Assembly (NCBI RefSeq): GCF_000019345.1
Contig: NC_010503.1
Span: forward strand, 150,001-182,000
Length of the DNA stretch: 32,000 bases
Direction of reading: 5' to 3'
DNA from: Ureaplasma parvum serovar 3 str. ATCC 27815
GTDB lineage: Bacteria; Bacillota_I; Bacilli_A; Mycoplasmatales; Mycoplasmoidaceae
Each line of letters begins with the position of its first letter. Position 1 is the first letter of the stretch. Shown here in pieces: positions 22,250 through 23,056 of the stretch. The notes beneath the pieces were generated by a model that saw only the letters and a program-made list of their open reading frames with translations, ran no database searches and was not told the DNA's origin. A program made the position numbers and the translations under genes.

Positions 22250-23056
22250 CTAGTTTGCCTCTAAATTTAAATTTATTTGTTGTAAAGAATTATTTAATTT
22301 TTTAGCCTTTTTTTGATTTTTAACTTCAAGTTTTGCAAGTTTATAAGCTTGTTTTTCTTCAGCACTTTTTTTAGGTGAAAATACAGTCGCTAGTTTAACA
22401 ACAATAATTATAAAAGTAATCATTTGTGGCATCATAAATACAATAAATACTCAATTATATGCAATATAATTTGGATTTTGATATTGTATAATGGTTGATA
22501 ATTTTGCAAGAGATTTTATTCCTTGAGCTGCTAATACAGGATTTTGTGAGTTAGCTAATTGTGAGAATAATTGATTATATTTGTAAAATCAACTATTTTC
22601 TCAATCACTTAATACTTTTGTTACAAATCCTCATGTTCCATTATGATTAATAAATTTACTATGCGCATGATAATGAAGAGCTTCATATAATTTTGGATCG
22701 TTATTTTTATTAGTATTATTAATTAATGACTCCATTGTTTTTCCATTAATCAATTGATCGTGAATTGTTTTATACAATTCTTGATAATTAGCGTGTTGAT
22801 CATAACCTAATCATGACATTAAAGAATGATTATCACCACTAACATCAGCTACTTTACCAATAATTTGACCTTGATCATTAACTAATGCTCTTGCATTTTC
22901 AAAACCTTCATTTAATAAACCAACCATTGTAAACGCTATTGTTAATCCTACTATAAATATAACTAATGCTGCTATAAATCAAGGCGTAAAGACTTGTTTA
23001 ATTTTTGGAAGTTTGCTGAATTCAGCAAAGCTTTTATTCATTTTAATTTGATTCAT
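22250..23056 (-). CDS. Two-TM membrane protein of unknown function inserted between atpA and atpG (268 aa)
   Basis: I translated this by hand from ATG 23054-23056, whose A is shared with the atpA TAA. It runs through 7 in-frame TGAs to TAG at 22250-22252, which lies 1 nt before the atpG ATG. TM1 is [24 protein letters not shown] soluble region of about 170 aa follows, then TM2 [25 protein letters not shown] and a Lys-rich tail. The track shows only the last 61 aa. Confidence 0.75.

Follow-up and report, generated by a model that had tools for sequence, protein, structure and literature searches.

Bacterial F1Fo ATP synthase is regarded as a fixed eight-subunit enzyme, and we know of no supernumerary subunit in any bacterial F1Fo. 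In mitochondria, supernumerary subunits that have no homologues outside their clade decorate Fo, as shown by purification and cryo-electron microscopy; to our knowledge none of these has a 150 amino acid (aa) domain on the outer face. The gene considered here, UU131 (gene X in the feature list below), lies between atpA and atpG in the atp operon on the minus strand of a 32,000-nucleotide stretch of Ureaplasma parvum serovar 3 str. ATCC 27815 (contig NC_010503.1, positions 150,001 to 182,000; "the window", to which all coordinates refer), and it encodes a predicted membrane protein with two transmembrane segments (TMs) that may be an additional component of this enzyme. If it is a subunit, UU131 would resemble the mitochondrial supernumerary subunits (e, f, g, 8/A6L and k, and the ASA and apicomplexan ones) in being lineage-restricted, fast-evolving and small, but those have been shown in the complex, whereas UU131 is a candidate.

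Several other systems invite comparison. AtpI (UncI) and AtpZ are, like UU131, noncanonical membrane proteins encoded in the operon and co-expressed with F1Fo, and AtpI evolves at a similar rate (conservation score 0.57, against 0.65 for UU131; the score is defined below). However, AtpI and AtpZ are encoded at the 5′ end of atp operons, whereas UU131 lies between the genes for alpha and gamma and has two TMs, a large ectodomain and a basic tail; it has no sequence similarity to AtpI, and atpI is itself present beside UU131 in the same operon. Like UU131, the second stator subunit b′, found in cyanobacteria, in chloroplasts and in some bacteria, is anchored in the membrane and continues into a charged helix in the cytoplasm, but b′ has one TM and a stalk of >100 aa, is a homologue of b and is encoded beside atpF, while UU131 has two TMs and a 48 aa tail. 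In mycobacteria the C-terminal extension of F1 alpha is a hydrolysis latch that contacts gamma; there, as in the ureaplasmas, a clade-specific C-terminal extension of alpha occurs in an enzyme that is needed in the synthesis direction, but the mycobacterial extension is ∼35 aa long with no extra domain and no accompanying gene, whereas the extensions described below span 80–440 aa, are variable and are accompanied by UU131. AtpQ and AtpR of the N-type ATPases are small membrane proteins of unknown or accessory role encoded inside an atp-type operon (PMC4154653), and UU131 is like them in this respect; they differ in lying between the epsilon and a genes, in belonging to another family and in having no ectodomain, and the Ureaplasma enzyme is a genuine F-type with a delta subunit. 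The delta-alpha-gamma genes normally form an uninterrupted block of conserved order (PMC4154653).

Among the mollicutes, ureaplasmas alone are believed to produce ATP chemiosmotically, and urea-driven ATP production in them was reportedly described by Smith et al. in 1993. Nearly all of their ATP comes from a urea-driven ion gradient through the ATP synthase (PMC2751442, PMC3511179), which is abundant in Ureaplasma and up-regulated at pH 7 (PMC13436400).

UU131 and its place in the atp operon

The window has a G+C content of 26%, and its reading frames are open only when TGA is taken as Trp. The preliminary description of this locus reported 268 codons (translation table 4) without an internal TAA or TAG, which holds, and seven in-frame TGA codons, where a codon-by-codon count gives six (W26, W82, W142, W152, W156 and W202). 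The tight junctions that it described are as stated: the A of the UU131 ATG (23056-23054) is also the last base of the atpA stop TAA (23058-23056), giving a TAATG overlap, and the UU131 TAG (22252-22250) is followed, after one base, by the atpG ATG at 22248. It is also correct that the standard code lists just a 61 aa terminal fragment of UU131 (22250-22435), but the concern that annotation would miss the gene is mistaken or moot; Mollicute genomes are annotated with code 4, and both GenBank and UniProt already list the open reading frame (ORF). Its product in the window matches AAF30537.1/Y131_UREPA exactly ("Uncharacterized protein UU131", annotated since 2000), although some records begin at M6 (23041) to give a protein of 263 aa. 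Only standard-code metagenome gene calls fragment UU131 (database entries P0011, P0012, P0014 and P0140, pieces of 38–96 aa); one such piece is a 60 aa JGI entry that carries the name "uncharacterized protein UU131", and the truncations fall at TGA codons. These pieces illustrate the fragmentation of code-4 genes in metagenome catalogues. No paper found by literature search mentions UU131.

The proposed topology of two TMs and a Lys-rich tail agrees with hydropathy (TM1 ∼27–47, TM2 ∼198–226), but the loop between the TMs measures ∼150 aa and not ∼170 aa as first estimated. Net charges are +4 for the N-terminus, −2 for the ∼150 aa loop and +7 for the 48 aa tail, and the protein is predicted to form an N-in/C-in hairpin that exposes ∼150 residues on the outside of the wall-less cell. 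An AlphaFold2 model built from an eight-sequence alignment is all-helical, with a mean predicted local distance difference test score (pLDDT) of 69 and a value of 80–94 in the ectodomain core (residues 80–200). The parts of UU131 are as follows.

22250..23056, minus: gene X = UU131, two-TM membrane protein, 268 aa (code 4), identified by sequence, codons, database match, purifying selection and TGA = Trp
22979..23056, minus: residues 1-26, cytoplasmic N-terminal segment, net +4, with invariant E12 F13 K18 K20 Q21 F23 T24 W26 (conservation 0.75-0.78)
22916..22978, minus: residues 27-47, TM1 (hydropathy; helix in the AlphaFold2 model)
22466..22915, minus: residues 48-197, extracellular all-helical domain (pLDDT 80-94 at ∼80-200; omega 0.15-0.64)
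22379..22465, minus: residues 198-226, TM2, the most conserved segment (conservation 0.81-0.84)
22253..22378, minus: residues 227-268, cytoplasmic Lys-rich helical tail, net +7 (hydropathy, AlphaFold2 model, conservation)

The conserved core of the ectodomain reads YD.H..YQ (85-92), H128...N137.N139.TWGF (141-144)...W156 F157, with variable flanks. In TM2 the conserved residues are W202 F204 I205 M208 M209 P210 M212 I217 K221 L222 T224 V225, and in the tail it is the proximal half that is conserved (P228 K229 E233 K235 K242 K246).

On comparative grounds UU131 is a real, functional gene. Against its U. urealyticum counterpart (86% identical), the ratio of nonsynonymous to synonymous substitutions (dN/dS, omega) is 0.16 with an unsaturated dS of 0.46, and for the same species pair the ratio is similar in atpI (0.13), atpE (0.14) and atpA (0.11); omega is <1 in every region of UU131. 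Its TGA codons align with TGG or aromatic codons across species, and the invariant W26, W142 and W202 are TGA in some species and TGG in others. Fifty residues are invariant across 13 members of the UU131 family, and the gene is whole in 9/9 Ureaplasma loci at 40–86% identity, this being the comparison with close relatives that had been named as a test.

UU131 matches no Pfam, NCBIfam or PHROG family, and no ATP-synthase model in Pfam or NCBIfam at E<=1, whereas all of its operon neighbors match theirs. It has no Pfam match to the AtpI, AtpZ or AtpR families, and its atpA-atpG position is neither 5′ of atpB nor between atpC and atpB; there is likewise no match to PF00430 (ATP-synt_B), and the two TMs with a 48 aa tail are unlike subunit b or b′. 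A Foldseek comparison of the UU131 model with the PDB gave nothing significant (best E 0.76, TM-score ∼0.2), and a sequence-profile search of the PDB gave no match. A word-indexed search of 5.8 billion clusters found eight UU131 clusters (E 1e-46 to 1e-172), the named ones all from Ureaplasma, and among 1.84 billion representatives an exhaustive hidden Markov model (HMM) search picked out four or five full-length members, of Ureaplasma type only; the rest were standard-code fragments and artefacts, and P0013 and P0015 from this search were rejected as relatives, being repeat or low-complexity artefacts. In its order of TM, all-alpha ∼150 aa domain and TM, UU131 fits the layout of two-TM sensors with a helical ectodomain (the four-helix-bundle type of methyl-accepting chemotaxis proteins and histidine kinases), but the resemblance is architectural only. 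A sensor of this type was discarded as an identification, as neither sequence nor fold matches a sensor domain and the cytoplasmic part is only a 48 aa basic helix with no HAMP, kinase or MA match.

The atp operon, on the minus strand, spans 28667 to 19557 and has the order atpI, atpB, atpE, atpF, atpH, short delta, atpA, UU131, atpG, atpD, atpC, with the following features.

28227-28667, minus: atpI
27374-28174 at least, minus: atpB
26996-27325, minus: atpE
26310-26927, minus: atpF
25767..26306, minus: atpH, full-length delta, 179 aa (OSCP match, 6.6e-37)
25458..25757, minus: extra short delta with the OSCP C-terminal domain only, 99 aa, UU133-type "atypical delta" (family matches; PMC2751442, PMC4154653)
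23056..25455, minus: atpA, 799 aa (alpha family match)
22258..22262, minus: AGAGG, Shine-Dalgarno-like element for atpG, inside the last UU131 codons (GGAG/GAGG at the same place in 9/9 Ureaplasma loci)
21388..22248, minus: atpG, gamma, 286 aa, beginning 1 nt past the UU131 stop
19967-21361, minus: atpD
19557-19967, minus: atpC
19521..19550, minus: intrinsic-terminator-like hairpin, 13 pairs plus a T run, ending the operon after atpC

The U. parvum UU131 gene lacks a separate Shine-Dalgarno sequence, and its start lies on the atpA stop; therefore its translation most likely depends on re-initiation by ribosomes that terminate at atpA, and it would in turn pass ribosomes to atpG. The arrangement is general, since in 9/9 Ureaplasma loci the UU131 ATG overlaps the atpA stop or sits one base after it, and the UU131 stop lies 1–2 bases ahead of the atpG ATG with GGAG/GAGG at Shine-Dalgarno distance in the last codons. 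No terminator-like site is present between atpA, UU131 and atpG, the only strong one being that after atpC, and promoter-like sites are no commoner across the operon than in shuffled sequence. From the overlaps and the terminator placement UU131 is predicted to belong to the atp transcription unit. The co-expression with F1 subunits that was proposed earlier is thus soundly argued from the operon-internal site, the lack of an internal terminator and the coupling at both ends (the coupled start and the embedded atpG Shine-Dalgarno element).

Distribution, conservation and accompanying changes in AtpA and delta

The order atpIBEFH, short delta, long atpA, UU131, atpGDC is the same in U. diversum, U. 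zalophigenitalium, U. miroungigenitalium, U. canigenitalium, Ureaplasma sp. ES3154, U. urealyticum and one further assembly, and the UU131 gene and its junction geometry are common to eight other Ureaplasma loci. The atpA-atpG position is thus conserved in all Ureaplasma loci sampled, a comparison that had been named as a test, and this conservation extends past the genus. Deeper lineages were found by searching with AtpA and then inspecting the contigs of unusually long AtpA proteins. In three uncultured lineages (L009, L010 and L011), whose AtpA proteins are 586, 691 and 946 aa long, the atpA-atpG gap holds an unannotated gene of 163, 196 and 262 aa, respectively. In a fourth, L017 (AtpA 654 aa), an insert was predicted beforehand from the extended AtpA and then found; it encodes 163 aa and ends GGAGG…TAATG. 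The four deeper inserts share the UU131 layout of a Lys-rich N-terminus, TM1, an ectodomain (60–180 aa, net negative), a Pro-containing TM2 and a Lys-rich tail (net +4 to +11), and they have no PHROGs or Pfam match. On the other hand, atpG directly follows atpA in five outgroups with AtpA of 513–540 aa (Mycoplasmoides pirum, M. gallisepticum, a Malacoplasma and two Mycoplasmataceae metagenome-assembled genomes), which have neither insert nor extension. In a neighbor-joining tree built from 674 ungapped columns of AtpG and the AtpA core (300 bootstraps), insert-bearing and insert-less taxa are split in 292/300 bootstraps (97%). The insert-bearing taxa form one clade, and so the simplest history would be that the insertion happened once, in an ancestor shared by Ureaplasma and the four sampled uncultured lineages, and was kept everywhere sampled. 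We infer the orthology of UU131 and the deeper inserts from position, topology and phylogeny only. Two motifs matched by eye between UU131 and the L010 insert were set aside as unsupported; one of them, "NH..W", is not kept in the L010 insert's own relative.

Conservation was scored as the mean over columns of the commonest-residue frequency in one six-species set. By this measure UU131 overall (0.65) resembles delta (0.61), short delta (0.64) and AtpI (0.57), but its parts differ greatly: TM2 scores 0.84, like atpB (0.85), atpE (0.85) and the atpF TM (0.86), the N-terminal cytoplasmic segment 0.78 and the proximal tail 0.75, while the ectodomain scores 0.59. Region-wise omega values follow the same division (0.10–0.16 in TM2 and the tail, 0.15–0.64 in the ectodomain), and between the L010 insert and the sole relative found for it (68% identical) the N-terminus/TM1 and TM2/tail regions are ∼100% identical and the ectodomain ∼40%. 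The emphasis that the preliminary description placed on the ectodomain is therefore misplaced, as this is the least conserved part of UU131 (score 0.59, omega to 0.64, and diverged in the L010 lineage). Where the membrane anchor is better conserved than the soluble part, and on every face of the helix, burial of that helix against conserved protein partners would be expected, and as read from these alignments the pattern favors such a partner over an independent membrane protein.

A C-terminally extended AtpA is present in 13/13 insert-bearing loci and in 0/5 outgroups, and across the insert-bearing clade the extension ranges from 80 to 440 aa. The U. parvum protein is divided as follows.

23941-25455, minus: residues 1-505, F1 alpha core
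23434-23940, minus: residues 506-674, acidic linker, 169 aa, net −43
23059-23433, minus: residues 675-799, C-terminal ASCH domain, 125 aa

The C-terminal domain corresponds to the one labelled "unknown domain" in the L22 fusion protein of Ureaplasma (NF008917, E 1.9e-42), and a profile of nine AtpA C-terminal domains matches ZmASCH 5GUQ/5GUS (E 2e-11 over 95 residues); 5GUQ is a Zymomonas ASCH protein (PMC5615036). The Pfam ASCH model itself does not match the AtpA domain. The U. parvum extension (as a "∼250 aa C-terminal extension") and the in-locus duplication of delta have been noted already, and the inserted gene has not (PMC4154653, PMC2751442); the ASCH identity of the extension seems to be previously unreported. 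Domains of the ASCH type have been linked to the binding of RNA and to single-stranded RNA cleavage, and ribosomal protein L22 of Ureaplasma carries the same fused domain. L010 and L011 AtpA end in the same ASCH domain, the L010 extension being without net charge and that of L011 net negative; L009 AtpA has a short acidic extension only, and L017 AtpA (3501-5465 of its contig) has, instead of ASCH, a Lys-rich basic extension with CxxC…CxxC (CSDC...CYNC, zinc-ribbon-like). Differing modules of nucleic-acid-binding type thus seem to be attached to the alpha C-terminus within one clade. A general pairing of the basic UU131 tail with the acidic AtpA linker was dropped, since the L017 extension is basic and that of L010 is without net charge.

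The short 99 aa delta between atpH and atpA is kept in all Ureaplasma loci. In L009 and L011 a short delta (102 and 96 aa, respectively; the C-terminal domain) is the only delta there, so these lineages appear to be without the delta N-terminal domain, which normally grips the alpha N-terminus; this hints that the F1-stator connection may have been remodelled in the insert-bearing clade. In all, the operon holds three clade-specific changes, a second truncated delta, the alpha-ASCH fusion and UU131, and the earlier genome papers noted the first two only. There seems to be no earlier account of the wider phylogenetic distribution of UU131, of its conserved operon-internal site, of its link to the AtpA extension or of its conservation pattern.

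Possible roles of UU131

Because of its position, its co-retention with the operon and its conservation pattern, UU131 is best read, with about an even chance of this being right, as a clade-specific accessory (supernumerary) component of the ATP synthase at the Fo/stator region. Its N-terminal segment, TM2 and membrane-proximal basic tail would then contact a conserved partner in the membrane, for which Fo a, b or c is the most plausible choice. In all F1Fo structures the C-terminal domain of alpha is turned toward the membrane, and therefore the conserved cytoplasmic segments of UU131 would lie beneath F1 on the cytoplasmic side of the membrane, at the exit of the alpha C-termini. There UU131 could dock or organize the C-terminal extensions of alpha and so supply a further tether to the stator, or it could act as a latch against ATP hydrolysis. 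The AtpA extension was gained in the same event or period as the UU131 insertion, and the ectodomain would be a faster-evolving, lineage-specific add-on whose His/Trp/Asn-rich helical core might, in Ureaplasma proper, sense external pH, ammonium or a metal. As a metal or pH site for the whole clade the His-rich motif was discarded; it is limited to Ureaplasma proper, and the deeper inserts are without it.

Several observations weigh against such a role. UU131 has no sequence, profile or fold similarity to ATP synthase subunits or accessory factors in the Pfam, NCBIfam, PDB, Foldseek and exhaustive HMM searches, and the accessible literature yielded no structure, co-purification, complexome or proteomics table for UU131 or the Ureaplasma ATP synthase. 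Homology between UU131 and the deeper inserts is not demonstrable (HMM 3–8 bits, hhalign probability 2–3%, also after adding the L010 relative). The presence of an AtpA extension is constant but its content varies across lineages, which argues against one specific interface between it and UU131, and the co-occurrence of the two is one phylogenetic event, so that it has little statistical weight and does not discriminate between a partner of the enzyme and a protein that never touches it. Mollicute operons often mix unrelated functions, and the UU131 site could be frozen for translational reasons alone, because the atpG ribosome-binding site lies inside the gene.

The last two points lead to the best of the alternatives, a serious one although on the whole rather unlikely, in which UU131 is an independent surface membrane protein, for example a binder of an extracellular ligand, protons or a metal, that makes no contact with the ATP synthase. 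It would have entered once at the atpA-atpG junction and been kept since its excision would destroy the atpG ribosome-binding site and the coupling. The embedded Shine-Dalgarno element, the single insertion and the commonness of mixed-function operons in Mollicutes fit this well, as do the absence of similarity to ATP-synthase-related families and a sizeable, predicted folded ectodomain whose invariant His, Asp, Asn and Trp residues are typical of a binding site. It accords poorly with an ectodomain that is the least conserved part, ranging from ∼60 to ∼190 aa with no recognizable similarity across the clade, and with TM2 and juxtamembrane segments that are conserved like Fo subunits; a free-standing receptor is expected to show the opposite. 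There have also been no losses or relocations in 13 loci that span ∼60% AtpA-core identity.

It is doubtful that UU131 is instead a transient assembly factor, one that aids Fo insertion or assembly or the joining of F1 to Fo, much as AtpI/UncI acts on the c-ring, and is absent from the mature enzyme. Operon-encoded, translationally coupled and conserved overall to the degree of AtpI and delta rather than of the core subunits, it would have precedents in AtpI and AtpZ, which are operon-encoded membrane helpers and not subunits. But atpI is already in the same operon, UU131 is unlike the AtpI, AtpZ and AtpR families, and coupling to atpA, which encodes a three-copy subunit, would presumably make UU131 abundant beyond the need for a catalytic chaperone. 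Finally, that UU131 is a decaying or chance ORF, or a spacer open just because TGA is a sense codon, might be suggested by its lack of a known domain and its splitting by the standard code, but this is already refuted by the comparative data (dN/dS of 0.16 and <1 in all regions, intactness in 9/9 Ureaplasma loci, 50 invariant residues and the TGA/TGG swap at invariant Trp) and by the confident helical core of the AlphaFold2 model, and it is so improbable that it can be set aside.

Should UU131 indeed be an accessory component of the enzyme, a conserved ninth membrane component would revise the fixed eight-subunit view, and it would offer a pathogen-specific, surface-exposed handle on an essential enzyme. 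A more specific and rather improbable proposal is that UU131 and the AtpA extension together form an extra membrane-anchored element, a stator tether or ATP-hydrolysis latch, only in the clade that holds the urea-powered ureaplasmas. In that case no bacterial Fo would have had a supernumerary subunit described before UU131, and no F-ATPase of any kind one with a sizeable outer-face domain; through the conserved histidines of this domain, external pH or ammonium could influence the activity of the enzyme. Even if UU131 merely travels with the operon, a new and concrete result is that a single ancient insertion together with the AtpA extension defines a clade of Ureaplasma and uncultured relatives.

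Other observations on the atp region

The subunit b encoded by atpF (26310-26927, minus) starts with a signal peptide and a lipobox-like LLTSC and is probably a lipoprotein; the Mycoplasma pneumoniae subunit b has been reported as a lipoprotein. In a Malacoplasma sp. locus (L015, 5924-8485) it is beta that is extended, atpD encoding 853 aa or ∼380 aa above normal, and there is no atpA-atpG insert. Just past the atp terminator of the window, a 101 aa ORF (19109-19414, minus) resembles UU131 in miniature, encoding a TM, a ∼50 aa His/Tyr/Asn-rich loop, a second TM and a Lys-rich tail; it has no Pfam or NCBIfam family and is absent at the equivalent place in four other loci (L002-L005). Farther downstream of the atp region (window 14532-18997, minus) lie two large ORFs of 399 and 1089 aa, each with an N-terminal signal and a Cys lipobox-like motif, which presumably encode surface lipoproteins.

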